64,000 nt of DNA. Source: a virus. Position numbers and translations under genes: made by a program. The notes below the pieces were generated by a model. That model saw nothing but the letters and a program-made list of their open reading frames with translations. It had not been told where the DNA came from and did not search any database. Shown here piece by piece: positions 10,867-40,758 of this stretch. Position 1 is the stretch's first letter. Each line of letters opens with the position of its first letter. The DNA lies in IMG/VR virus record IMGVR_UViG_3300045988_076196, positions 32,242 to 96,241 of that record; one strand, given 5' to 3'.

Positions 10867-11010
10867 TTGTGGAGCGAAATGAGCTATAACTGGTATGTAT
10901 CGGAAGATACAGAACCAGAAGTATGGGATGATGAATATGAGCCAACTGAGCGCGATTGGTCGCTTTGGATATATGGTAGTTCAGAGAATGATTTAGAGGT
11001 GATTTTTTGA
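10867..11010 (+). CDS. 47-aa acidic, Trp-rich leader ORF
   Basis: aaggaggtggtaagaaa-TTG (or ATG 10879); its stop overlaps the TTG start of the polymerase gene (TTGA). Confidence 0.4.
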   Translation: MWSEMSYNWYVSEDTEPEVWDDEYEPTERDWSLWIYGSSENDLEVIF

Positions 11011-12890
11011 GCCTACAGACGCAAGTTTATTTGCATTCAGTAGATACGTCATGCTTTTATGATGACAACGAAATGACGCTACATAGACGGCTTGTTCGGT
11101 TATATTCTTTGCGTAAGCGATGGAAGGATAGTGATAAACCAGATTGGCGTATCAAGTCTGTAAATCGTTTGCTTAAAAAAGAAAAGGTGCGACTATCTGA
11201 ATTGCTCGATGATGCAGTGAGACGAAATGAAACTAGAAAATTGCGTCAAGATGCTGTGACCGATAAAACGGTTGTTAATCTATTTGAATCTGACTTAACA
11301 CGCAGCTTAGGACTTGACCCGTTCAAGTTGACAGATGAGCTGTTCATCATTAACGTATTTTTCTTTCAGGTATTTAATAATCTAGTTCATCAAGGATTTA
11401 TTTACAATGGTGAAAAATATGTGTTCCTTACAGCATCAGCTGGACAGATAAGAACGAAAAGAGCCGTATTCGTTAAAGAATCGTCGTTTAAGCGCATTGA
11501 GCAAAAATTGATGTGCGGCTTGACCATAGACGAAATCAATGAGCGCGGAGGCATGAATCAGAATAAATTCCTTGCATATTTGGCGCTTATGAACTCTGCC
11601 ACAGATGTTTGGGAAGATTTTGATATTGACAAATCAATCGTAGTAGATGATTGGGAAACGGCTGTTCCGGGATTGGTTGATCATATTGATGGCGTATCGT
11701 ATGAGATTCGGCGCGAAATGACAGAGACGATTATTCCTCATATGGACGGATGCGGTATTATGCTCAATGAAACAACAAGAATGGTGCGTATGCCATGGGT
11801 AAAGGGATTACTTGTTACATTTCCGTTTGATAAGTTTATCAAAGAAAAATGCGGTGGCGAGGCAACAGTAACGGATATTTATGGCAATGAGCATAAAATT
11901 ATAGAGGAAGATATACGGTATATATTCACAAAAAGCCAATTCAAGCTATGGAAATTTTATGATTCGTGGAATTGTTATAAGGCGCGATTCAAAAATTTTG
12001 GATGCAATGCTTGTTATTGCAACATAGAAGAACCGTATATTCCAAAGAGCCGCATCAATTATCAGATGCTTCAAACCTTGAGTGATATGACTGATAATGA
12101 GATTGATCGCATTATTTCTAAGACTGCGCAAGAGATTGACGATGTTGGTAAAGATTATCAAGTTACTATGCGGTTACTTGGCGCAACAGAGAACAATCGT
12201 TATAAATCAGCTATGCAAGAGGCGTTGCTGATTTATCCTGAATTATTCAAAGATTCATATAATCGAGAAATTCTGAAGCAGACTAAAAAGAGCCTAGTTA
12301 AACAAGCCAAAGGTGGGCGGCTTAGAGTAAATGGGAAATATTTATTCTTAGCGCCTGACTTGTATGCGTTTTGTGAATGGCTGTTCCTAGGTGAGCAGAA
12401 TCCACAGGGACTGCTTGCAGATGGTGATGTATATACTAATCAATATCGTGATGGTGATGAATTAGCTTGTTTGCGTTCTCCGCATTTGTATAGGGAATGG
12501 GCAATTCGGACAAATAGGCGTAGCTTAGAGCTTGATTATTGGTTTGGTGGAACTAAGTGTATATATACTAGTTGTCATGATTTAATAACAAGGATAGTTA
12601 TGGCGGACTGCGACGGTGATAAATTATTGGTTGTAAAAGACCGAACATTGACAAATTGTGCGAAAAGGAATATGTCTGATATTTGTACTTTGGCATATGA
12701 TCTCAAAAAGGCGAAGGGAGGTTTGGTAAATTCAGATAGCTTATACGAAGGAATGATTAGAGCATATACCGGTGGCAACATTGGTATTTGGAGTAATCAA
12801 ATAACTAAAATTTGGAATAGCGGGAATATTACTAAGGAAGAATTGGACGTTGTAAAATGGTTGTGTTTTGAGAATAATGCAGTAATTGAT
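11007..12890 (+). CDS. YonO / cellular-RdRP-like single-subunit RNA polymerase, exon 1
   Basis: FLTASAGQIRTKRAVF (about 11424-11471) resembles the RdRP FLxFSxSQLRxxxxWF motif; LRSPHLYREW ... ADCDGD (DCDGD at 12606-12620) matches the DxDGD metal-binding motif; the frame stops at TAA right at the intron start. Confidence 0.6.
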
Positions 12891-13930
12891 TAAATGATAG
12901 TCCACTCATGCGGCAACGCATGATGTGAATGATGGTGAACTCGTAAATGCGAGGTGTGCGGAGAAATCCGTGCTAACGGTAAAACCCTAAACGTATGAAC
13001 GCATGGCAATACCGTGGCAAGATTGTGTGATAAATATTAAGATGAAAGGAGGGACAATATGAGAAAGATTAGTTTGATTGGCAAGAAATTTGGGAGATTG
13101 ACGGTTTTATCTGATGCTGGAACAAAAGGTGGTAGAACATATTCTAACTGTCTATGCGATTGTGGTAAAATGGTGGTAGTTAGTAACAAACATCTAAAAA
13201 GTGGGCATACAAAATCTTGTGGATGTTATAAAAACGAAATTATTGGCGAAATTGGTAAAATAACCGGCAAGACAAATATCAAGTATGCGCAAAAGCAAGC
13301 ACATGAAAATAATAGAAAACATGATATGTCTGGAACAAGATTGTATAGAATTTGGTTACAGATGAAACAGAGATGTCACAACGAGAAGAACGACAGGTAT
13401 CAATATTATGGCGGTAAGGGCGTTTGCGTTTGTGATGAATGGAGAGAAGATTTTCAAGAATTTGAACAATGGTCGAATAACAATGGATATAGAGATGACT
13501 TGACCATTGATAGAATAAATTCTAATAAAAATTATGAACCGTCTAATTGTCGTTGGATATCTCAAAGTGAAAATAGCGCAAGAATACATCGTGATGTGAG
13601 ATACTGGTGTATTGATGTACAAGGCGGAAGATATGCAGAATTTGACAATATTAGAGAATTTTGCAGAAATAATCCTGAGATCGCAAATGAGAATCATGTG
13701 AGATACGCTGTTAGCGGAAAATGTGAAAATCAAGGCGATATTATATTTGGCAAGTTTTAATATTTTATCACACAATAAGCTGTAACGACTAGCCCATTAG
13801 GGCGTAGCTTGTAGGTGAAATTCCTACTCGCAAAGTGCCATCCATCTCTATGAGATGAAGAGATAGTCTACTCCGACTGTTTGAGCAGTGTTAAAGTATC
13901 TCGAAAGAGACGGTATGAAGGTATGCTAAG
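12891..13930 (+). mobile_element. group I intron (td-like, IA2-type) carrying an HNH homing endonuclease; 3' boundary +/-30 nt
   Basis: begins taaatgatag after an exon-terminal U (T4 td begins taattgagg); aaatccgtgctaacgg, taacgactagcccattagggcgtagc and gagatagtctactcc closely resemble T4 td core elements. Confidence 0.7.
13059..13760 (+). CDS. intron-encoded HNH homing endonuclease
   Basis: gaaaggaggg RBS; CxC...HTKSCGC zinc cluster; DRINSNKNYEPSNCRWISQSEN (HNH_3-like); paralog of 63280..63951. Confidence 0.8.
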   Translation: MRKISLIGKKFGRLTVLSDAGTKGGRTYSNCLCDCGKMVVVSNKHLKSGHTKSCGCYKNEIIGEIGKITGKTNIKYAQKQAHENNRKHDMSGTRLYRIWLQMKQRCHNEKNDRYQYYGGKGVCVCDEWREDFQEFEQWSNNNGYRDDLTIDRINSNKNYEPSNCRWISQSENSARIHRDVRYWCIDVQGGRYAEFDNIREFCRNNPEIANENHVRYAVSGKCENQGDIIFGKF

Positions 13931-14611
13931 ACGCAATGGTTGCCAGAACGACCAAAACAAATCAATAATACAATTAAACAATATACAAAAGCCCGTGTTC
14001 CAAATTTCTTTCAATATGCAAAAGACAAAGACCCAGATACCCAAGTTGAGCCAGCCAACAATTCAACCATGAATCGTATCTCAGCTAAAATCCCTACTTC
14101 CAGAATCCGCTATAACAATAAGATTGGGAAATTTGACTGGACTATGCTGATAAATAAATCGGTCGATTATACTACTAGAGAAAATTCTTCAATCATTGAG
14201 CGGTATAATTGGTGGATATGGAATCAGCGCCGATTTGATTATGGCGATGACCCGCATATCAATGAGGATGATTTATATAAATATCGCTGCATTGCACAAG
14301 ATATAGTAGAATATAGCAACGAGCCACTAGATATTGTGGTGAATAGCCTAGTTGCTTATCTATACACAGTTAAAAAATCAAGTAATAAGAAAATGCTATG
14401 GGCTTGTTTTGGTTGGACGATTGTAGAAAATTTGAGAATCAATACAGCGCAACTTAATCCAATCTGTTCCATTTGTGGCAAGCGGTTTAAGCCGAGAGAT
14501 GTATGCCAGCATTATTGCTCAGAGGAATGTTACAAGAAAGCAGATAATCAGCGGCGCATTGAGTCGCGTGAAGCCCCACCTGTCCGCACGGGGGACATGT
14601 TAAAACAATAG
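13931..14611 (+). CDS. YonO/RdRP-like RNA polymerase, exon 2 (start approximate, 13904-13940)
   Basis: the frame is open from 13895 with no RBS and no ATG; C-terminal CSICGK...CQHYCSEEC zinc finger. Confidence 0.5.
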   Translation, partial: TQWLPERPKQINNTIKQYTKARVPNFFQYAKDKDPDTQVEPANNSTMNRISAKIPTSRIRYNNKIGKFDWTMLINKSVDYTTRENSSIIERYNWWIWNQRRFDYGDDPHINEDDLYKYRCIAQDIVEYSNEPLDIVVNSLVAYLYTVKKSSNKKMLWACFGWTIVENLRINTAQLNPICSICGKRFKPRDVCQHYCSEECYKKADNQRRIESREAPPVRTGDMLKQ

Positions 14612-20007: not shown

Positions 20008-20157
20008 TATTTGCCTATGAAGCGGTAGCTATGTTGGTGTGTTGCCGTGGAGGCACTATTAGGGTTGTGTGGAATCCAAGTTCCAACTGAGGCTTAATCA
20101 AAAAAAGTTGAAAATAAAAACACTCAAAAAATATAAAACAAGGAAAGGAGGTTGAAG

Positions 20158-29943: not shown

Positions 29944-30078
29944 ATGAGAAAGTTCCTAGCTGGCGTTGGCGATGCTATTCTCCTTAAGGGTCAGACTATC
30001 ATCGGCTTTGCCAAAACTCTAACAGAATCAACCTTTGGCTTTACTATTTCTAGTGAAGAAATCCGTGGCGGCAAGGGT
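29944..30078 (+). CDS. major tail protein, exon 1 (45 codons)
   Basis: aaggagg RBS; MRKFLAGVGDAILLKGQTIIGF...EEIRGGKG; reading on gives a stop after 6 more codons. Confidence 0.6.
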
Positions 30079-30285
30079 AAAAATTGCCCTCTGCGTTAAG
30101 TAATTAGCGTATGACTTCGGGTTAAATGCTTTGAATCCCTAAAGCCCACATACCTAAACAGTAGTTGGAAACGACAAGCTGAATGGTTACGAAAGTAGAA
30201 AAAAGTTGTGGGATGGCTATACGGTTAAATCCTAAGTAGCTTATACCGATAAAATGGGTGTTTAGCAGAGAAGTCCCTAAATATA

Positions 30286-30314
30286 TTGACATATTTATAA
30301 CAATGTGATATAAT
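30286..30314 (+). promoter_or_regulatory. consensus sigmaA promoter inside the intron
   Basis: TTGACA-17 nt-(TGa)TATAAT; 25 of 29 positions identical to early promoter P2. Confidence 0.6.
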
Positions 30315-30526
30315 ATACATGGGAAACTTTCAACGAATATCTCCTTGTGGGAGAAGTAGAACCTCAAGCATATGGAGGAAGAAAAATCCGACCCCTATAA
30401 AATAGGGTGAACATATATTCTACTCTCATGTGAAAGCATGAGCAGACTGCTAGTAATAGTAAGTCGATATTGGCGTTGCGAACCAATATGAATACAAAAT
30501 ATTTTATACTAAAAGGAATGTTATGT

Positions 30527-31600
30527 ATGTTGTTATCAAAAGTTGTTAAGTTGAAATGGAACACAAAGAATAGAAAACATTACGAAAGTATTGGATATAT
30601 ATTTACTAAATATGGTGATGAATTTGATGTAAAAGTCGAAGATTTGACACCTTCTAGTAAAGTTGTTGTTGAGGTTGAATGTGACTTTTGTCATAGCGTT
30701 GTTGTGAAAAAGAAATATCAAACATATAATATACAGCATCACGAAAAATATGGGGATTGTTGTGCATCATGCCAATCTAAAAAGAATAAGTTGATATGTA
30801 TGGATAAATATGGCGTTGACAATGGTTCTAAGACAGAATATGCCATTGAAAAAATAAAACAAGTTAGTATGGAGAGATATGGTGTAGATAACCCATCTAA
30901 GATAAGCGATGTAAGACGCAAGTTAAGCGAAATAGCTAAGGCTAATTCAGAAGATGTTATCACTAAGAGAAATCAGACCATGCTAGAAAAATATGGCACG
31001 ACATCACCAATGGACTTAGATATTGTCAAAGAGAAACAACGTGATACTCTATTGAAGAATTATGGCGTTGAGCATCCAAAGCAAAGTGAAGAAATAAAAA
31101 TGAGAGAACGTCAACGGAATATTGAGAAATATGGTGTTGATAATCCTATGAAACTTAAATCCGTAAGAGATAAGATAAAGGCAACGTGTCTTGAAAAATA
31201 TGGCGTTGAATGCTCATTAAGCTCACCAGATGTTAGAGCTAAAATTAACAAAACATTACTTGAAAATGGTAATGTAAAAACATCTAAACAACAACTTCAA
31301 CTACAACAACTATTAAAAGAAATATATGGAGATTGTGACTTAAACAAGCCGTGTGGTTCATGCTTTCTTGATTGTGTAATTGAATATAATGGTGTCAATA
31401 TAGATATTGAATATGATGGTGAATATTGGCATCAAGATACACAACAAGATAGGCGTAGAGACGAATTTGTCAAATCACAAGGATATAAAATTCTGCGCAT
31501 TCGTGGAAGATATGACATTCCAAATAAAGAACAACTTGTGAAACATATTGAAGAATTGGTAAATTCACAACATACATTCGATATAATTAAAATGGTATAA
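30527..31600 (+). CDS. homing endonuclease: six KYG-type repeats plus a C-terminal Vsr-like PD-(D/E)XK nuclease (I-Bth0305I-like architecture)
   Basis: repeats (E/D)KYGV(D/E)NP..K about every 23 aa; C-terminal DIEYDGEYWH...RDEFVKSQGYKILRI; track start 30470 has no RBS. Confidence 0.7.
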   Translation: MLLSKVVKLKWNTKNRKHYESIGYIFTKYGDEFDVKVEDLTPSSKVVVEVECDFCHSVVVKKKYQTYNIQHHEKYGDCCASCQSKKNKLICMDKYGVDNGSKTEYAIEKIKQVSMERYGVDNPSKISDVRRKLSEIAKANSEDVITKRNQTMLEKYGTTSPMDLDIVKEKQRDTLLKNYGVEHPKQSEEIKMRERQRNIEKYGVDNPMKLKSVRDKIKATCLEKYGVECSLSSPDVRAKINKTLLENGNVKTSKQQLQLQQLLKEIYGDCDLNKPCGSCFLDCVIEYNGVNIDIEYDGEYWHQDTQQDRRRDEFVKSQGYKILRIRGRYDIPNKEQLVKHIEELVNSQHTFDIIKMV

Positions 31601-31613
31601 AATATAATTAGGT

Positions 31614-32549
31614 AATGCACTAATCGGTAAATATTATCATGATTCTGGTCTAACTGTTCAGATTACTGACTCTTGCTTCAAGCTAGAGTATATTGCGGCC
31701 AATCTTGGTGTTGATCTACAGAAGGGCGGTCTTGGTGTTTATCAGGGCGAACTGGTTGTTCAGACTGCTGGTAAGGTCACTCTACCACAGGCTCCAACCG
31801 CCGTTGCTGGTTCACTAATTGGTTGGTATCGCACTCCTAGCGAGAAGGATTATACTGTTGGTACAATTACTGAGGCGTCCGGTGTATACACAATGGAAAT
31901 TGCCAATGCTAAGGTTGGCGAGAAGTATTGTGTTATGTATTTCTATCAGAATGCTAATGCTGATAGCATTATCATTCCAGTTGACTATGTACCAGACGAG
32001 CTTCACGTCATTATTATCAATGACCTGTTCAATGCGGATATTTCCACTACGAACAATGCAACTAAGGTTGGCCGTCTAATTACTGATATTCCTAGACTAC
32101 AGCTTGATGGCGCACAAGACCTTAATCTTACTGCAACTTCCGCAGCTACTGTTTCTCTGTCTGGCTCTGCTCTAGCAGTTGACTCCACTGACTCTTGCGA
32201 GAATGAGTCTTACTATGGTACTATGACCGAGGAAGTCTTTGGCGCAAAGTGGCAGAACGAAGTAAAGGCTATTGCATTTGAGGATGCTGATATTAGCCTA
32301 AAGGCAGCTGGTAGCCAGACTCTAGTTTGCTATGTTCTATTTGACGGCAACAAGGCTCCTAAAATTGTTGACAATGCCAATTTTACATTTGCTGTCGAGG
32401 ACGGAACTGAGAATGTGTCTGTCAATGAAAGTGGCGTTGTGAATGCAATCAAGGCTGGTACAGCACATATTTCCGCAACTCTAAAGGGTGCTGACCCAGA
32501 GGTCAACCCAAGTGTTGTTGGTTATGCTGAGGTCACTGTAACCGCTTAA
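31614..32549 (+). CDS. major tail protein, exon 2 (C-terminal Ig-like Big_2 domain)
   Basis: NALIGKYYHDSGLTVQ... continues from exon 1; C-terminal VNAIKAGTAHISATLKG...GYAEVTVTA. Confidence 0.6.
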   Translation, partial: NALIGKYYHDSGLTVQITDSCFKLEYIAANLGVDLQKGGLGVYQGELVVQTAGKVTLPQAPTAVAGSLIGWYRTPSEKDYTVGTITEASGVYTMEIANAKVGEKYCVMYFYQNANADSIIIPVDYVPDELHVIIINDLFNADISTTNNATKVGRLITDIPRLQLDGAQDLNLTATSAATVSLSGSALAVDSTDSCENESYYGTMTEEVFGAKWQNEVKAIAFEDADISLKAAGSQTLVCYVLFDGNKAPKIVDNANFTFAVEDGTENVSVNESGVVNAIKAGTAHISATLKGADPEVNPSVVGYAEVTVTA

Positions 32550-33347: not shown

Positions 33348-33879
33348 AGTTGAATTGCGTCGAATGCTGAAAGACCCCTTGCAAAAAGCTGTACAATATG
33401 TCGTTCAAAAGATATGGAATGAAAATCGCGAAGTAGTACGACTTGTTGTCTACGAGGTCTATCAGCCAACAGAATATGATAGAACTATGGGTTTTCTTAA
33501 TGCGTGGGACTTTACAGGCGAATATTACAATCCACCAAGCATGAACTCTGTAGCACATGGTGAATTTTATTTCAAGCCCAGTGAAATGCCACTTGGCAGC
33601 ACAGACCCAGAATCAGGAAATTATGCGCAACATATTGGTATTGCTGGAAGTTATAAGGGCGCAGATGCTCGTGAGTATCTGGCTGATATTATTTACGGTA
33701 ATATAAAGTGGGGTTCTGGTTTTGGCATTGGAGATTGGCAAAGAAAGCGTGACGCATGGACTGAGTTAAATAAGCGCATAGGCAGACGCAAGATGAAACA
33801 ATGGATGAAAGAAGGCATGGAGGCGGCTGGGCTTACTGTACAGATGCACAATACGCCGCTTCATGTCGAGGAAAGTTAA
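33328..33879 (+). CDS. hypothetical protein
   Basis: 183-aa ORF with its own ATG, overlapping the upstream gene by 20 nt. Confidence 0.5.
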   Translation: MPTARSEVELRRMLKDPLQKAVQYVVQKIWNENREVVRLVVYEVYQPTEYDRTMGFLNAWDFTGEYYNPPSMNSVAHGEFYFKPSEMPLGSTDPESGNYAQHIGIAGSYKGADAREYLADIIYGNIKWGSGFGIGDWQRKRDAWTELNKRIGRRKMKQWMKEGMEAAGLTVQMHNTPLHVEES

Positions 33880-33880
33880 T

Positions 33881-34396
33881 ATGGTTATATGTGGACTTGA
33901 TGCAAGCACCTCTTGCACTGGATGGTCTATATTTGATAATGGTGAACTCATTGCATATGGCGCAATCAAGCCCAAGGGTGATGATTGGCACGATAGGGTA
34001 ATGGGGCTTACTATGGAATTATCAAAAATATTTAGACAGTATCAACCCACCATTATCTATGCAGAGGAAGTGCCATTAAAAAAAGGCGCATCTACTATAG
34101 AAAAATTGGGCGCAGTGCAAGGCGTGATTTTAGCATTATGCGCTGGCTTCAAGATAAAGCCATGCTTCTTGATGCCAAGTAAATGGCGTGGCGACCTTAA
34201 TCTCTTTGATGGCACAAGAGCCGGATTACAAAGAGATGTTCTGAAGAAAAAAGCCATAGAGATGGCGAATGAAGAATTTGGCCTCGAATTGGCATGGGTT
34301 GCCCCAAGTAGCAAAAAGAATGAGGATGATTGCGCGGAAGGAATCCTCATAGCCTACTCACAAATTAAGAAAAAAGGGAGTGTGATGAATGGCTAA
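33881..34396 (+). CDS. RuvC-like Holliday junction resolvase
   Basis: ICGLDASTSCTGWSIF, IIYAEEVP and DDCAEGILIA correspond to the RuvC catalytic acidic motifs. Confidence 0.75.
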   Translation: MVICGLDASTSCTGWSIFDNGELIAYGAIKPKGDDWHDRVMGLTMELSKIFRQYQPTIIYAEEVPLKKGASTIEKLGAVQGVILALCAGFKIKPCFLMPSKWRGDLNLFDGTRAGLQRDVLKKKAIEMANEEFGLELAWVAPSSKKNEDDCAEGILIAYSQIKKKGSVMNG

Positions 34397-34766
34397 AAGT
34401 TCAAATTACTCGATACTCGTTGATGCTGAGTTAGACTTAAAACAAATCACACAAAAACTTAATTCACAGAAATATAAAATAGATGTAGAAGCTAATATGA
34501 CTGGTGATGCGGCAGACAAACTAAGAAATACAAATTCTGCCACTCGGTCATTAGAGGAATCTACAGTGGATCTTACTCTTACATATCAGCAATTTAGACA
34601 AGTACTTGATTCTGTTATTGATGTAACGAGTAAAATGTATGAGCAAGTCAAGGCGTTAGACACAGCACAAACGGAGTTTAAGAAAGTCTCGGACTTGTCT
34701 GGTCAAGCACTTGATGATTATACAGATAAACTTGCTCAGATGGGCAAGACAGTTGGCCGCACCGGT
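34389..34766 (+). CDS. tape measure protein, exon 1 (126 codons)
   Basis: typical TMP N-terminus ...LDTAQTEFKKVSDLSGQALDDYTDKLAQMGKTVGRTG; reading on gives 15 unrelated codons and a stop. Confidence 0.65.
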
Positions 34767-35104
34767 AAACCAAATCGGTCTGAGCCGGTATGTACAAATG
34801 GTAAATGTGCATAGAGAACAGCCCCTAAACCCTTGAAAGCCTCAAGAGCCTTATCACTACAACATGAGGATGAGATAAGCCTGAGTGTGATTATTAACAA
34901 TGAATCAGCGCGAAAGCAGAAAGACGATAAGGATGATTCCATGGTTGAAAAACCTAAAGAATCTGTCTTAAATAATGTATGATATTTGAGACAAAAGGGC
35001 AGATTGGGCGCGAAGCCGTGATGAGCGGTGTGTCAATCGAATATACAGGGCGACCCTCCAATTATATAGGGTGAAGAAATATTCAGGAAGGGATTAAAAA
35101 CCCC

Positions 35105-35133
35105 TTGACAAATTATCTAATATGTGCTATTGT
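35105..35133 (+). promoter_or_regulatory. sigmaA-type promoter inside the insert
   Basis: TTGACA-17 nt-(TGc)TATTGT, 27 nt upstream of the ATG at 35160. Confidence 0.45.
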
Positions 35134-35159
35134 ATAGATACTTAAAGGAGGTATCTATT

Positions 35160-35384
35160 ATGTTCTTATCTATCGTATTTGCAATTTTTGTTTGGCCTGC
35201 CATTGCCATTGCTGGGTTGATTGCATTAGGTAAAGAAATTGGGAGATTGTTTCATAACTCAAGCGATTCAACCAAGCCGACCACTATACAGTCACAACGT
35301 AATATTCATTATGAAACACCTAAAGAAGAAGAGCGACGTACTAATTATTGGGGCATGGATGATGAAAGGTGGGGCAAATTGTAA
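35160..35384 (+). CDS. 74-aa single-pass membrane protein
   Basis: aaaggagg RBS; MFLSIVFAIFVWPAIAIAGLIALG followed by a hydrophilic tail. Confidence 0.5.
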   Translation: MFLSIVFAIFVWPAIAIAGLIALGKEIGRLFHNSSDSTKPTTIQSQRNIHYETPKEEERRTNYWGMDDERWGKL

Positions 35385-35464
35385 TGAATAATCTAGCTAC
35401 AGTGTTCATCATTGGATGGTTCGTTTACATCATCTTATTTACAATTAGTTGTGTGAGGAAGTAA
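35384..35464 (+). CDS. 26-aa hydrophobic peptide
   Basis: TAATG overlap with the upstream stop; MNNLATVFIIGWFVYIILFTISCVRK. Confidence 0.35.
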   Translation: MNNLATVFIIGWFVYIILFTISCVRK

Positions 35465-35466
35465 TT

Positions 35467-35583
35467 ATGGAAGATGTATATATTGTAGCAATCATCGCAA
35501 CGGTAATCGTATTTGCCATCCTTATTTATCTTTGTTCCATGAGTGGCTATACAACAAAGCGCAAAATCCAGATGATTATATAG
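35467..35583 (+). CDS. 38-aa hydrophobic peptide with a basic tail
   Basis: GAGGAAG RBS; MEDVYIVAIIATVIVFAILIYLCSMSGYTTKRKIQMII. Confidence 0.4.
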   Translation: MEDVYIVAIIATVIVFAILIYLCSMSGYTTKRKIQMII

Positions 35584-35679
35584 ATATTAATAGAAAGAAA
35601 CGAGATAAGGATATAGCACAGGTCAAAGCCCAAGAAAAGTATGACAATGATTGGGGATATATTAGATAATTTATAACCG

Positions 35680-38600
35680 TCAGAGATGGTTGAAGCCGCA
35701 ACGGAATTTCGCAAGAATAGTTTTAATGATTCTGATTCGGCAACGCTAGCAAAAGTAGCGACAATGTTTACTAATGTAGCAGATGAATCTATGTCTGCTG
35801 CTGATAGCGCATCGTTTATTATAGCTCAGATGAAGGCATTCAATATAGAGGCTGATGATGCTTATAGGATCATCGATTCTGTGAATGCTGTGTCAAATAA
35901 TTATGCCGTTTCATCTGGGCAATTAGCACAAAATCTAGGTAATATGTCTGCTGCAATGGCAACAGGCAATAATACATTTGAACAGTCTCTTGGTATGCTC
36001 ACGGCTATGACTGAAATCACGAGGAATGCACCCAAGGGTTCAAGAGCGCTTATTACTGTACAGGGACGTCTGAATCAGGTTGTAGACGAATCCTCAGATA
36101 CGGGTAAGGCGTTAACAGCATGGTATCAAGAACACGCCATCGCTATTAAAGATGATGAAGGTCAAGTTCGTAGTCTATATGAAGTATTGACTGATGTAGC
36201 AAAGATTTGGCCTAAATTAACCAAGAATGAGCAGATGTACTATCTGCAACAGCAAGCAGGAACCACACAAACACAGAATCTTGCTGCTCTTCTAAAAAAT
36301 TATCAAACAGCTATTGATGCAACCAATACAGCGCTAGAATCCAATGGTTCTGCCATGAAAGAAAATGAAGCCTACATGGAATCAATTTCTGCGAAGGAAC
36401 AGGCTCTTGCAGCTGAATTTGAGGATTTTGCAAATCGTGTTTTATCTAAAGAGTTGGTTGGTGGATTCTTGGATGCTGGTAAAGCTATGCTTGATTTTGC
36501 CAACAATGATGTTGGTGCGGCCATTACTAGGATCACTGGATTCTCTACTACTATTGCAAGCTTAGTTGGTATTGCAGGTACGGTTATTGGAAAACTAAGT
36601 GAGATGAGAACATTGTTCTCAGCGACAAATGCAGCTGGCGGATTAGCGTCTATTTTAACCTCACCAAAGACATTACTTATTATTGCAGGAGTAGCAGCAG
36701 CTATTGCTGGAATAGTTGAAGTTGTACAAGCGTTAAATCAGGCAGCAGAAAATAGGAAATTTGAAAATCTTGTAAAGAATTTTGAAGAACTTGATAAACA
36801 AGCCAAAGACGCTGCTGATAAGCTTGAAGACGTCAAAAAGCGACTTGATGAGTTAAATGATACTCCTGCAAAAGATAGAGGTCAAGATTGGCAGAATGAA
36901 ATAGACAAACTTGAGACATTAAAGCAATATTATGAATATATTGAACAAATGCTTCAAAAACAAGCTGCCGCTGCTCAAGAAGCTGCTTATAACGCTCCTC
37001 GTACTGTTGGTGTATCTGTTGATAAGAAAGTTGTTGAAACAGACGAGTATAGTAATAATTTTCAAACATATATAAAAGAAATCGGTCAATATAAGACTGA
37101 ACAGGAAGCTGTATATGCTCTTGCTGCTCAAGAGAGTATATCTTTTACAAATGAGCAAACAGAGGCGCTATCAAAGTTGTATGATGAGACAGAGATAGCC
37201 GCACAGGGTTATGCTTATTTGAAACAAAACCTAGAAGATATTGGCTATACGTTCTCCAACAACATTCAGACTGCTTCTGAATATGCATTATCTCAAGGCT
37301 CTGCTATGAAGGGTTTGGCCGTACAGATTGAAGAAACTAAAAAATATAGCACAGAGCTTACACAGGCACAACAAGAGCAATACGATGCTTACATAAAGAA
37401 TAATCAAGGACAGTATGAGTATCTGTCAGGTCTTCATAATTTAACAACTGAGCAACAAGCGTTCGTTGATGGATATAAAGCCATGGTTGATGCCATGGGT
37501 GATTATTCAGTTAATGTCGAAAATGTAGCTAATGAAGTTGAAAATATATCTAATTCGTTTGCGTATTATAATGAAATTGTAACGAACTATCAGGATGCAA
37601 TGAATGGTGTAACCGGAGCTTCTGAAGCATTCGTTCAATCTCTGTTTGACCAAAATGGACAATTAACTACAACAGCTCAAACGGCGCTAACCACAGACAG
37701 TGCGATGGCGAGTTACGCTACTTCTATCATACAGGCGCAACAAGCACAGTCTCAGGCTAACTTTAATAATCTTATTCAGCAGATTGCATCAGTTGGACAA
37801 CAGGCCACAATAACTTCCGAACAAATTGCTAATATGATGGTGATGGCTGGTGTTCAAATTGGTGCTGGTGGTAGCGCTGAGCTTTCTAGGAATCTACAAC
37901 GTACATACGAAGCTAAAACTGGCAAGAAAGTATCGCAGGACAAAGCTGCGTACAAACAATGGTTACAAGATACCGCCTACCAAATCGGTCAAAATCAATG
38001 GAAACGTCAGCAAGAGGAATATGCGAAACAGCTTGAAGCCATAAAAGATTATGTCCCAGCAGAAAAAGCCGCCGAAGAAGCAGAAAAGCAAGCTAAGAAA
38101 GCCCAAAAAGCGCAAGAAAAGGCGGCTAATGAATCTCAGTCGGCATATGAATCAGCCGCAAAATCAGCAGAGCAAGCCGCGCAAGAAGCAGCTCGTGCCG
38201 CTGAACAAGCCGCAAAATCAGCAGAGCAAGACGCGCAAGAAGCAGCTCGTGCCGCTGAACAAGCCGCTGAGGAAGCCAAGCAGAAAATTCTTGATTCTAT
38301 CCAAGAACTAAAAGACGCATCTGATGATTTCTGGGATAGCAAAACAGACGCTGTTGAAGAAACCAACAAAGAGCTAGACCGCCAAAAGCAACTTGAAGAA
38401 AAGCTCAAAGCGCTAGAAGAAGCCAAACAAAAGAAAATCCTACTCTATAAGAACGGCCAGTTCCAATATGACAAGGATTATGGGACGATTGCTAAAGCTC
38501 AAGCTGATTATGAAGAAACCCGCGACAAGATTCAGCGCGAACGTGAGCTAGAGCAGCTTCAAGAGATGAAGGATAACGCCACTAAGATATTCAATGAAAT

Positions 38601-40758
38601 GAAGGATATTGTTCAGAATGGCGGCAATGTCACTCAAGAGATGATTAACAGTTGGCTTTCTCAGATGCAAGCCGATGGGGCTGATTATTATGATAGCAAC
38701 AAGAAAATGCTTGGTGAATGGCTGGATTGGGCTAAGGGTGCTATCAATGAAATTAGCAACCAAGTAGCATCTGCTACTGGAGGTAGCGGAGGCGCTAGTG
38801 GTGGTTATGGTTCCGGTAGTGGCAGTGTTTCTGGACAATGGAGTCATCAAGACGAAACAAATCCATATGTTGCTTTTGGACAAGATACAATCCAAGAGAT
38901 GCTTGAATGGATAAAAAAGATAGATAAATATCAAGACGATGAAGAGTTTATGAATGAGATAATACGAAGAGCTGCTAGTGCTGGATATATTATTCCATCT
39001 AATGCAGGACTTCGTGGCAATCTAAAAATGAATCTTCTTGAAGCTCTTCAAAAAATTCTAGCGCCATATCAAAATCTAATTGAAACTAACACATCCAGCC
39101 CGTATGTTTATGCATGGAAGGGTTTATTTAAGGGTGAACTTCAGAGAGGTACTGACCTAGGTAGCAACACTGTATTTGCAGGATATCAGAACAAACTTTT
39201 GTCTGGCGCTATCGATGACCCATATGAAGAGCAGGAATATTATCAACGCAATCAAGCCATAAAAGCTCTATACAATGAATACAAGAAAATAACAGACCAG
39301 CTTGGCTATATTCCAGATTATCTGAAAGATTTTATGGATATGGGGTCACAAATGCTCAACAATGTTGACCTTGTTGCTAGAAAAATGGCTGATAATTACG
39401 ATAATTTGTCTGCTAGTGGTAAAAGCCTGTTGGATTCTCTCATATCTGGCGAAGAGGACTATGAGGCGGCTAATAAGATGCGCATTGCATATCTAGCCGA
39501 GAATTATAGTCCAGAGCGTCTTAGATATATGAATCTAGTCCGGGTGGCTGGTTCTTCCAGAAATGCAATGCAGTTGATGAATCAACGCACAGAGGAAGAT
39601 AAAGCCCGTGATGAGGCACTGTATGGCGATTGGCTAAATGAGCTACGAGATAAGATAGACAAAGCTGGCGGTGTTGTAACAGATGAGATTTACAAGTGGT
39701 ATCTAAAAACAGCTGGTGGAGCATTAGGTGCTTATGGAACTGGCGACGCTCAGCTATATACAGATGTGTTTGCTGGTGGCGGCAAATATTTATATCGTGA
39801 TCAAGAAGAGCTAGAGAGGCTTGGTTATCATGGATTCTTAGGTAATTTTGGCAACATCAGCGAAGGCGGGTTGTCTGATGTAACTAAGAATCTTGTTAAG
39901 AGCAAAATCCTAACGTCTACCACAGAAACAAACATTGATAAGCAAAAAGAGCAGATAACTCAGAATAATATCAAAGGCATTAAAGATACTCTTGAGAAAT
40001 ATCAAGAGGGATATGGCGCAACTCAACACTGGATTGATGATGCAACCAAATACATCACTGATACTCTGAATAAAAACAACGAGGCGTTGTTGACAGCTGA
40101 TGCAGAAACAAGAAAATCTTTACTTGCTCAAAATGAAGAGCTTGTGGGTATTCGTGATTCTCTTAGTGGTGTTGAGGCTGATGAAGATATTAACAAATTA
40201 CCCGGCTCAACAACTGCTTACAATGATTGGGAGTTCAAGATTGATAACCCAACAGATGAAGAACTTGCGGCAAAAGCAGAACAACGTGCGCAAAAGTTGG
40301 CAGAACAAATGGCGGCAAATTCAGAGGCATGGTGGAACGCTAGTTCTAAAGCAGAGCAAGACGCTTTACACAAAGCAAACGAGGAGCTTGCTAAGAAAAT
40401 CAATGATTTGACTGGTAGTAATTTGACATATGAGGGGTCGACTGGCACATGGTCAAAGAACGCCTCTGGTACTCATAATTTCCGTGGTGGTCTATCCTTA
40501 GTTGGTGAGCGTGGCCCAGAGCTTAGAGTTCTTGGGCAAGGTGATAGTATCATTCCAGCTTATCAAACGGCAAACCTATGGAAATGGAGCGGTACAACAC
40601 CTGAGAGTATGCTCAAAACGCTTGAATTGAGAAAAGGCGATGGGCGAAATTCTTACGTATTCAATGTGTCTAAGCTCGAATTACCAAATGTTAACAATGC
40701 AAAGGAATTTGTGGCTGGACTAAAGAATTATGCGCTACAGTATAGTTATAAACGTTAA
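35680..40758 (+). CDS. tape measure protein, exon 2 (about 1692 codons)
   Basis: very long alpha-helical / coiled-coil ORF; EAATEFRKNSF... and C-terminal GGLSLVGERGPELRVLGQGDSIIPA are typical of tape measure proteins. Confidence 0.85.
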   Translation, partial: SEMVEAATEFRKNSFNDSDSATLAKVATMFTNVADESMSAADSASFIIAQMKAFNIEADDAYRIIDSVNAVSNNYAVSSGQLAQNLGNMSAAMATGNNTFEQSLGMLTAMTEITRNAPKGSRALITVQGRLNQVVDESSDTGKALTAWYQEHAIAIKDDEGQVRSLYEVLTDVAKIWPKLTKNEQMYYLQQQAGTTQTQNLAALLKNYQTAIDATNTALESNGSAMKENEAYMESISAKEQALAAEFEDFANRVLSKELVGGFLDAGKAMLDFANNDVGAAITRITGFSTTIASLVGIAGTVIGKLSEMRTLFSATNAAGGLASILTSPKTLLIIAGVAAAIAGIVEVVQALNQAAENRKFENLVKNFEELDKQAKDAADKLEDVKKRLDELNDTPAKDRGQDWQNEIDKLETLKQYYEYIEQMLQKQAAAAQEAAYNAPRTVGVSVDKKVVETDEYSNNFQTYIKEIGQYKTEQEAVYALAAQESISFTNEQTEALSKLYDETEIAAQGYAYLKQNLEDIGYTFSNNIQTASEYALSQGSAMKGLAVQIEETKKYSTELTQAQQEQYDAYIKNNQGQYEYLSGLHNLTTEQQAFVDGYKAMVDAMGDYSVNVENVANEVENISNSFAYYNEIVTNYQDAMNGVTGASEAFVQSLFDQNGQLTTTAQTALTTDSAMASYATSIIQAQQAQSQANFNNLIQQIASVGQQATITSEQIANMMVMAGVQIGAGGSAELSRNLQRTYEAKTGKKVSQDKAAYKQWLQDTAYQIGQNQWKRQQEEYAKQLEAIKDYVPAEKAAEEAEKQAKKAQKAQEKAANESQSAYESAAKSAEQAAQEAARAAEQAAKSAEQDAQEAARAAEQAAEEAKQKILDSIQELKDASDDFWDSKTDAVEETNKELDRQKQLEEKLKALEEAKQKKILLYKNGQFQYDKDYGTIAKAQADYEETRDKIQRERELEQLQEMKDNATKIFNEMKDIVQNGGNVTQEMINSWLSQMQADGADYYDSNKKMLGEWLDWAKGAINEISNQVASATGGSGGASGGYGSGSGSVSGQWSHQDETNPYVAFGQDTIQEMLEWIKKIDKYQDDEEFMNEIIRRAASAGYIIPSNAGLRGNLKMNLLEALQKILAPYQNLIETNTSSPYVYAWKGLFKGELQRGTDLGSNTVFAGYQNKLLSGAIDDPYEEQEYYQRNQAIKALYNEYKKITDQLGYIPDYLKDFMDMGSQMLNNVDLVARKMADNYDNLSASGKSLLDSLISGEEDYEAANKMRIAYLAENYSPERLRYMNLVRVAGSSRNAMQLMNQRTEEDKARDEALYGDWLNELRDKIDKAGGVVTDEIYKWYLKTAGGALGAYGTGDAQLYTDVFAGGGKYLYRDQEELERLGYHGFLGNFGNISEGGLSDVTKNLVKSKILTSTTETNIDKQKEQITQNNIKGIKDTLEKYQEGYGATQHWIDDATKYITDTLNKNNEALLTADAETRKSLLAQNEELVGIRDSLSGVEADEDINKLPGSTTAYNDWEFKIDNPTDEELAAKAEQRAQKLAEQMAANSEAWWNASSKAEQDALHKANEELAKKINDLTGSNLTYEGSTGTWSKNASGTHNFRGGLSLVGERGPELRVLGQGDSIIPAYQTANLWKWSGTTPESMLKTLELRKGDGRNSYVFNVSKLELPNVNNAKEFVAGLKNYALQYSYKR
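38155..38262 (+). repeat. 54-bp tandem duplication (2 copies, 1 mismatch) within the tape measure gene
   Basis: gccgcaaaatcagcagagcaag(c/a)cgcgcaagaagcagctcgtgccgctgaacaa at 38155 and 38209. Confidence 0.9.

Follow-up and report, generated by a model that had tools for sequence, protein, structure and literature searches.

A probable group I-type intron with membrane-protein cargo genes interrupts the tape measure gene of a human-gut siphovirus

Introduction

Phage group I introns such as those of T4 td (with I-TevI), nrdB and nrdD (sunY), SPO1 and Twort contain an open reading frame (ORF) that is looped out from a peripheral helix and has its own promoter. Placement in a terminal loop is the classical way in which group I introns house ORFs. 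These introns are viewed as selfish elements that persist via a homing endonuclease or as decaying remnants, and they also occur in phage structural genes, as in the capsid gene of Tuc2009. Work by Bonocora and Shub from 2009 reportedly describes collaborative homing, and HK97 gp15, the subject of work by Cumby et al. from 2012 and 2015, is said to be a membrane superinfection-exclusion moron whose target pathway involves the tape measure protein. The introns in capsid and tail genes of Cluster J mycobacteriophages (PMC3706429) and the S. thermophilus lysin intron (PMC3952083) contain an endonuclease or no ORF, and trans-homing of an endonuclease-less intron has been described for T4 mobE with the defunct I-TevIII (PMC2790892). 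Here we describe a 913-nucleotide (nt) insert in the tape measure gene of IMG/VR virus record IMGVR_UViG_3300045988_076196. The insert lies in a stretch of 64,000 nt (positions 32,242 to 96,241 of that record) that we call the window and by whose positions all features are given. The host genome is a roughly 90-100 kb human-gut siphovirus. The insert is very probably a self-splicing intron of group I type whose cargo is a membrane-protein operon with its own promoter.

Results

Interruption of the tape measure gene

The initial annotation of the window proposed that the tape measure frame breaks after position 34766 and resumes at 35680, and that excision of the sequence between restores it. 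The parts concerned are as follows.

34389-34766, plus strand: tape measure exon 1; 126 codons, C-terminal ...GKTVGRTG, reading ...KLAQMGKTVGRTG up to 34766
34767-35679, plus strand: putative group I-type intron; 913 nt, with the ribozyme core at nt 1-340, the cargo loop at about nt 358-892 and a 3' tail to the terminal G
35680-40758, plus strand: tape measure exon 2; 1692 codons plus stop, frame open from 35680 (SEMVEAATEFRK), beginning UCAGA (predicted P10 partner)

Homologues and two empty sites agree with both proposals. Excision gives a single ORF of 1818 amino acids (aa) in which GRTG is followed directly by SEMVEAATEFRK, as in uninterrupted relatives. Homologues covering the whole query read GRTGSEM(V/I)(E/D)AATxFRKN, gapless across the junction, and in two homologue genes the site is empty and reads ...ACTGGT/TCAGAR ATG... 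(slash at the junction) with zero bases gained or lost. These two empty-site DNA sequences make the insert boundaries exact to the base. The insert begins with AAACC and finishes with CCG; the last base of exon 1 is U (T at 34766) and the last base of the insert is G (35679), which is the group I junction rule that had been pointed out before. The exon 1 frame continues into the insert as far as a TAG stop at 34812-34814, 46 nt in and within the P2 hairpin described below (ORF 34389-34814). The joined N-terminus matches the tape measure pattern, as had also been proposed: against the Pfam profile PhageMin_Tail, exon 2 alone scores 62 bits from profile position 17, and the joined exons score 73 bits from position 2 with the junction spanned.

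The closest cultured relatives are the Enterocloster bolteae phages PMBT24 and CB473P1-3 (41% identity), where RuvC is followed by the tape measure gene, as in the window, and the tape measure gene is unbroken. The RuvC-like endonuclease gene of the window (33863-34396) overlaps the tape measure start (34389) by 8 nt; the Enterocloster phages, which lack the intron, share this order, so the nuclease is not associated with the intron. A public contig, locus L057 (ENA ERZ27270388 k141_173206, 96327 nt), has an intron identical to the window's, and its gene calls give the tape measure as two genes encoding 141 aa and 1690 aa.

We considered whether the insert could be a moron cassette that acts at the DNA level, with the tape measure made as two cooperating polypeptides of 126 aa and 1690 aa and no splicing. 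An ATG at 35686, two codons inside exon 2, is where public gene calls start to give the 1690-aa protein. In addition, the insert has its own promoter, and splicing is an inference. However, we found no Shine-Dalgarno sequence upstream of this ATG, the break lies within the conserved PhageMin_Tail domain, and the insert is at exactly the same nucleotide in every copy. Moreover, 340 nt of covarying non-coding RNA and a guide that pairs with both exon edges and covaries with the exon would be without a role in a DNA-level moron. We regard such a split gene as improbable. The earlier statement that the resumed exon has neither a ribosome-binding site (RBS) nor a plausible independent start holds for the RBS; an ATG is nevertheless present at 35686.

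Predicted structure of the putative ribozyme

To describe the putative intron, we use loci numbered L001 onwards, 42 of which came from two IMG/VR pattern scans and more from protein look-ups. From these, 38 complete copies of 601-1066 nt were extracted, 35 of them unique. The predicted parts of the window's copy are listed below; P and J denote helices and the segments joining them.

34761-34789, plus strand: P1; exon ACCGGU (34761-66) with internal guide GCCGGU (34784-89), U.G at the splice site
34779-83 with 35680-84: P10; UCUGA with exon 2 UCAGA
34790-34812, plus strand: P2 hairpin; intron 24-30/40-46, both-side changes in 4/7 pairs
34821-24, 34830-32 and 34839-42, plus strand: 5' strands of P3, P4 and P5, with J3/4 UAAA and J4/5 UUGAAA
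35048-51, 35006-08 and 34997-35000: partner strands P3', P4' and P5'
34843-34996, plus strand: P5 extension; 154 nt, with long-range helix 34849-55/34926-32 and GAAA hairpin 34909-18
34935-39/34959-63: helix in the P5 extension with the GAAA-tetraloop receptor-like motif CAUGG/CCUAAAG, capped by GAAA hairpin 34943-54
34965-92: variable hairpin in the P5 extension
35015-35029, plus strand: P6 hairpin; intron 249-252/260-263, compensatory variants CCG/CGG, UCC/GGA and UCU/AGA
35037-35085, plus strand: catalytic core; P7 5' strand 35037-44 (U, bulged C, GAAUAU), P3' 35048-51, P8 hairpin 35053-72
35079-85: 3' part of the catalytic core; P7 3' strand, with J8/7 GAAGAA
35086-87 with 35677-78: P9.0; GG with CC, terminal G at 35679
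35088-35106, plus strand: P9 hairpin; compensatory changes in L026, L016 and L047

The structure model comprises 80 pairs in 17 helices. We aligned 20 representative "mini-introns", each made up of the edges of the exons, intron nt 1-341 and the final 16 nt, and found that 95.8% of pair cells were paired in these 20 variants versus 34-46% in controls with slid partners. Pairs changing on both sides numbered 29 versus 1-6 in the same controls. None of 500 shuffles matched the observed pairing, both-side changes or covariation score; the observed count of further pair types was matched by 63 of 500, and this measure does not stand out. Both-side changes are present in P3, P5, P6, P7 and P8. The helices follow each other in the canonical group I order, P3-P4-P5-P6-P7-P3'-P8-P7', with a P3/P7 pseudoknot. 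The core has a long P5 extension and a short P8, and lacks P7.1/P7.2.

The elements expected to act at the splice sites vary in a consistent manner. P1 has U.G at the 5' splice site in 20/20 sequences, and at two positions exon and guide change together, as seen in L040 (ACUGGU/GCCAGU) and L047 (AGCGGU/GCCGCC). In P10 (UCUGA/UCAGA) all cells (100%) are paired and the one change is from U-A to U.G; in P9.0 (GG/CC) 92.5% of cells are paired. P7 reads GAAUAU/AUAUUC in the window and GAGUAU/AUACUC in L016, and L047 has the textbook form, GACUAU/AUAGUC. The helix contains U271-A319 (C-G in 8 sequences), a bulged C/A at 272 and an invariant G273-C318, which, lying beside the bulge, is a candidate guanosine-binding pair.

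The assignment of P4 and P5 follows from two paralogous introns, found by nhmmer elsewhere in the tape measure genes of relatives, in which both helices covary. Pair 73/234 is G-C in the window, U-A in L001/L027/L029b and C-G in L048c, and pair 64/242 is C-G in the window and A-U in L048c. The P5 extension holds two invariant GAAA tetraloops, and the canonical 11-nt receptor UAUGG/CCUAAG is present in L001, L016, L044 and L047; a tetraloop with its receptor module is typical of large ribozymes.

Two sets of strings had been put forward as group I core elements. One, ccctaaa, is a genuine core element that spans P3-J3/4-P4. By contrast, the strings near the 3' end that had been likened to the td core (aaggatatagcac...ggggatatattag) are coding sequence of the frameshifted cargo ORF 3, their last part being the 3' strand of the closing helix of the cargo loop; P7 and J8/7 in fact lie at 35037-35085.

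Several candidate elements were tried and dropped. A first P4 (64-68/229-233) did not hold in the paralogous introns and was mismatched at its center in L001, and was replaced by 64-66/240-242. A "P5" hairpin at 72-78/99-105 had zero both-side changes and crossed a well-supported helix; P5 is now placed at 73-76/231-234. RNAalifold paired exon 1 with AUCGGU (intron 8-13), which we rejected since GCCGGU is the strand that covaries in L040 and L047, and L047 has no AUCGGU. A hammerhead-like CUGAUGAG in the P6 loop of most copies was rejected for want of a placeable stem I; the window has GUGAUGAG there.

The same data bear on other kinds of intervening element, namely a group II intron, an intein or translational bypassing, whose sole support is the in-frame interruption of a coding sequence. 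The insert boundaries (AAACC...CCG) have neither the GUGYG start nor the AY end of a group II intron, and we found no Rfam group II match, domain V or reverse transcriptase ORF. An intein is contradicted by the stop 46 nt into the insert in the exon 1 frame, and 913 nt is far above any known ribosome hop, the hop in T4 gene 60 being 50 nt. The topology is that of group I, and we give these alternatives a negligible probability.

Predicted cargo loop, promoter and ribosome-binding site hairpin

The remainder of the insert, beyond the ribozyme core, is bounded by a long helix and begins with predicted expression signals.

35110-35123, plus strand: 5' strand of a P9.1-like helix, AAAUUAUCUAAUAU; exact complement of 35659-35672
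35659-35679, plus strand: 3' strand of the P9.1-like helix (35659-72) and tail; AUAA, P9.0 CC 35677-78, terminal G 35679
35105-35133, plus strand: predicted sigma-70/sigma-A-type promoter; TTGACA, 17 nt, TGcTATTGT, 10/12 positions matching
35134-35158, plus strand: predicted RBS hairpin, AUAGAUAC/GUAUCUAU; Shine-Dalgarno sequence in loop and stem, abutting the AUG, with the 5' strand at the predicted transcription start

The closing helix is 14 bp long, begins just 3' of P9 and stops 7 nt short of the 3' splice site. This position makes the cargo the terminal loop of a P9.1-like helix. In most subfamilies the helix is retained with other sequences, such as UUUAAUAU/AUAUUAAA in L018, UUCAAUA/UAUUGAA in L005, an unrelated 18-bp pair in L016 and two blocks of 10 and 7 bp in L044; it is also kept in L040 and L021. 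DNA at 35088-35133 appears to have a triple role, as in RNA it contributes the P9 3' strand and the 5' strand of the loop-closing helix, and in DNA it holds the -35 box of the cargo promoter together with the spacer. This triple role probably explains the strong conservation of the spacer within subfamilies.

Divergent copies with differing spacers retain the -35 and -10 boxes, set 17 nt apart, as well as the TGn. Judged by its sequence, the insert has a promoter of its own upstream of the added ORFs, as morons do. Directly 3' of the promoter, hairpins of the AUAGAUAC/GUAUCUAT type enclose the Shine-Dalgarno sequence, and a hairpin of unrelated sequence occupies the same place in L041/L044, L047, L029, L001 and L019. 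Since the 5' strand of the hairpin lies at the predicted transcription start, RNA from the internal promoter would be unable to form it and tape measure pre-mRNA would be able to. In most copies, the Shine-Dalgarno sequence and AUG are predicted to be more accessible in the short RNA (a change from 0.19 to 0.62 in one example), with the start of this RNA itself a prediction. Such hairpin control would mirror that of T4 I-TevI.

Cargo genes

The cargo of the window consists of three ORFs.

35160-35384, plus strand: cargo ORF 1; 74 aa, intact, family A, with an N-terminal membrane helix and an acidic tail ending DDERWGKL
35384-35464, plus strand: cargo ORF 2; one hydrophobic helix of 26 aa, with its start overlapping the ORF 1 stop (TAATG)
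35467-35669, plus strand: cargo ORF 3; frameshifted family B, 38 aa to a stop at 35581-83

The initial annotation described a promoter and three membrane-peptide ORFs, and ORFs 1 and 2 as well as the promoter are as described; ORF 3 is a truncated remnant. Its remainder, NPDDY...YDNDWGYIR, lies in another frame and ends at 35669, and an intact family-B protein is 67 aa long, the length at which >1000 database clusters of the family are intact. The frameshift is a one-base deletion (AAAA for AAAAA) in an A-run around 35560. Three assemblies, each from a different sample and at least one of which is a distinct sequence, share the deletion, which makes an assembly error unlikely. The counterpart of ORF 2 in L029 is 33 aa long, and ORF 1 is labelled in nr as a hypothetical protein of "Caudoviricetes sp.".

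All 38 complete copies carry one to three tandem small membrane ORFs of 26-92 aa that are often translationally coupled. Their layout is an N-terminal membrane helix (two in some), then basic residues and a charged tail often ending acidic-W-G. A homing endonuclease is absent from 38/38 complete copies, the longest ORF being 92 aa, in line with what had been noted for the window's insert. Near-identical ribozymes carry different cargo combinations, indicating that the cassette has been exchanged. In closely related sets, cargo pN/pS is 0.07-0.2. By this measure, the ORFs are real genes under purifying selection.

Profile searches placed family A in 149 clusters and family B in 1220, all of about 63-96 aa, lacking a Pfam domain and nameless beyond "hypothetical protein". 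Among database cargo matches whose context was looked up, 4/4 lie in this intron, including the entry for the window's ORF 1 and one from a Hadza gut metagenome. We found no significant match for the cargo in Pfam, PHROGs or PADLOC.

Distribution and mobility

In the collected loci the element is always at the identical tape measure site, and it is present in many 80-100 kb phage contigs from many samples. A degenerate empty-site pattern returned three intron-less alleles from IMG/VR versus at least 42 occupied ones; the three are 70-84% identical to the window exons over short stretches. Neither IMG/VR nor the JGI metagenomes yielded a close intron-less allele with a window-type empty site, and the intron looks fixed in this lineage. 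The core pattern had 0 matches in 185,579 species genomes and so gave no clue to the host from prophages, and megablast of the region against GenBank phages gave no match.

In L002, L047 and L048, a standard endonuclease intron follows downstream after a 24-nt mini-exon (SEMVDAAT), and it could co-convert the cargo intron. The window has no such neighbour at this site. Tape measure genes of relatives have up to three introns (L002, 4257-7130; also L001, L027, L047, L048, L053, L059 and L060), a further one sitting after ...YYLNQQAG. The tape measure gene is an intron hot spot.

Two other introns had been noted in the window, and our analysis agrees. A second group I-like intron at about 30079-31700 follows an exon ...GGCAAGGGT that ends at 30078 and has the guide GCCCU. 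Its core, CAACGAAUAUC ... GACCCCUAUAAAAUAGGGUGAACAUAUAUUCUAC, resembles that of the tape measure intron, and it has a TTGACA-17-TATAAT promoter near 30287-30315 and a 376-aa endonuclease-like ORF (30470-31600). A third intron, at about 12894-13939, lies between ORF 11007-12893 and ORF 13940-14611 and contains a 233-aa ORF (13059-13760); its 3' core, GUAACGACUAGCCC ... GAAGAGAUAGUCUAC (13775-13872), matches a paralogous intron of L029. Rfam detects neither of them. Elsewhere in the window, 20012-20128 (plus strand) matches the Rfam "drum RNA" RF02958 at 49.7 bits (gathering score 43).

Discussion

We propose that when the late tape measure transcript is made, its first 340 nt of intron would fold as a ribozyme, and the 14-bp helix would loop out the 535-nt cargo, bringing the terminal G and exon 2 to the core via P9.0 and P10. 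Guanosine would then attack 3' of the U in the P1 U.G pair and the exons would be ligated. The predicted ligated RNA reads ..CGCACCGGT joined to TCAGAGATGG.., or as a 40-mer GACAGTTGGCCGCACCGGT joined to TCAGAGATGGTTGAAGCCGCA. It would encode one tape measure protein of 1818 aa containing the junction-spanning peptide GRTGSEMVEAATEFR / TGSEMVEAATEFR. The RBS hairpin would shut the cargo in read-through RNA. Because RNA begun at the internal promoter would be unable to form this hairpin, translation of the cargo is probably confined to its own transcript, as is known for T4 I-TevI.

The group I reading is stronger than when first made, given the covariation of the structure, the covariation of exon and guide in P1 and the 38 complete copies with the same kind of cargo. 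Several observations weigh against it. A scan with the Rfam group I intron model RF00028, proposed earlier as a check, left the intron undetected: neither the window, scanned at the gathering score and also at E<=10, nor the insert alone gave a match. The most canonical copy, L047, scores 11.6 bits (gathering score 50 bits), and the endonuclease-bearing intron of L002, 24 nt downstream, scores 77.7 bits in the same test. P9.0 and P10 barely vary and are proposed from complementarity only, P4 is just 3 bp and invariant within the family, and the internal topology of the P5 extension is only partly resolved in our model. The closing helix is weaker and farther from the splice site in L001/L027 and L047. 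In the window's own copy, predicted accessibility of the Shine-Dalgarno sequence and AUG goes from 0.55 to 0.40 in the short RNA, where opening was expected. There is no terminator-like site on the plus strand at 34300-35800, as a moron would have, nothing ties the cargo to a particular function, and splicing is something we infer from sequence. On the structural model, the element is a group I intron of a form outside the coverage of the curated Rfam model.

These points raise the question of whether the insert could be a fossil, in which splicing is inefficient or depends on a phage or host factor, the ORFs are leftovers and the phage lineage is tolerant or defective. The lack of an endonuclease, the frameshift in one cargo ORF and the failure of Rfam to see the intron would all be expected of a decayed element. 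Yet the intron is carried by many 80-100 kb phage contigs in many samples, its structure is kept by compensatory changes and its cargo is under purifying selection. The interrupted gene is also essential, as siphovirus tails are not assembled without the tape measure protein. We give decay little credence and favor an active group I-type intron.

What the cargo does can be stated with much less assurance. Our best guess is a moron-like membrane role such as superinfection exclusion, with which the cargo shares general features only (one membrane helix followed by basic residues, and a C-terminal tail that is acidic). A role in lysis timing (holin- or antiholin-like), or a toxin-like addiction module that penalizes loss of the intron, is an alternative that we rate as rather unlikely and still worth bearing in mind. 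Short single-pass membrane proteins encoded by tandem, translationally coupled paralogues would suit such a role, and there are weak matches to a PHROG holin (E=0.04, in one copy) and to a YxzE-like bacteriocin (E=0.02), but no match is significant. A strict toxin-antidote pair is also at odds with the free swapping of cargo among near-identical ribozymes and with the one dead gene in the window.

A tentative idea, which we put forward as possible and short of probable, is that this intron lineage gave up homing and became a protected carrier of an exchangeable membrane-protein cassette. The cassette would be expressed from its own promoter, without dependence on the surrounding late tail gene. 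Its proteins would act on DNA entry and exclude competitors that inject through a tape measure channel, and the intron would be kept for what its cargo gives the phage and not for any cutting of empty sites. At least 35 sequence variants share a common site, a covarying ribozyme and a cargo that always encodes membrane proteins. If the cargo does benefit the phage, it would provide a second way for an intron to persist, and would mean that an early or independently expressed gene can be placed harmlessly within a late gene that is essential. Automated annotation presents the tape measure gene as two, and the standard Rfam model misses all three introns of the window, suggesting that gut viromes probably hold more introns of this class than have been counted.

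The initial annotation knew of no described example of such an intron. In a limited literature search we likewise met neither a tape measure intron nor any other group I intron of a phage described as having a membrane-protein operon, a result that falls short of proof of absence. Compared with the introns that are mobilized in trans, the window's intron is similar in having no endonuclease of its own, and L002, L047 and L048 have an endonuclease-intron neighbor. It differs in that the window has no such neighbor and no close intron-less allele was found.

Like the introns of Tuc2009, Cluster J phages and S. thermophilus, the element sits in a late or structural gene, was recognized by comparison with intron-less relatives and obeys the U...G junction rule. 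Those introns are spliced in late expression, which for the window's intron is the predicted behavior. Unlike them, it has an independent membrane-protein operon as cargo and the tape measure gene as its site. HK97 gp15 is similar to the cargo in being a small inner-membrane protein encoded among late tail genes by an independently expressible gene with its own host-type promoter. Unlike the cargo, gp15 is intergenic and has a terminator, and the two have no sequence similarity.

The element resembles the introns of T4-type phages, SPO1 and Twort in its group I architecture within an essential phage gene and in its early in-frame stop past the 5' splice site. Its ORFs occupy a terminal loop near the 3' end, as in P9.1 of sunY, and, as for I-TevI, there is an internal promoter, here a predicted one, and a hairpin over the RBS that in this element may form only in the read-through transcript. 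In contrast to the T4-type introns, it carries a membrane-protein operon and not a homing endonuclease, and is undetected by RF00028. It also has no P7.1/P7.2, which the IA2 phage introns typically have, and its P5 extension is large and contains tetraloop and receptor modules. Among phage group I introns, the element is a new variant in both structure and cargo.

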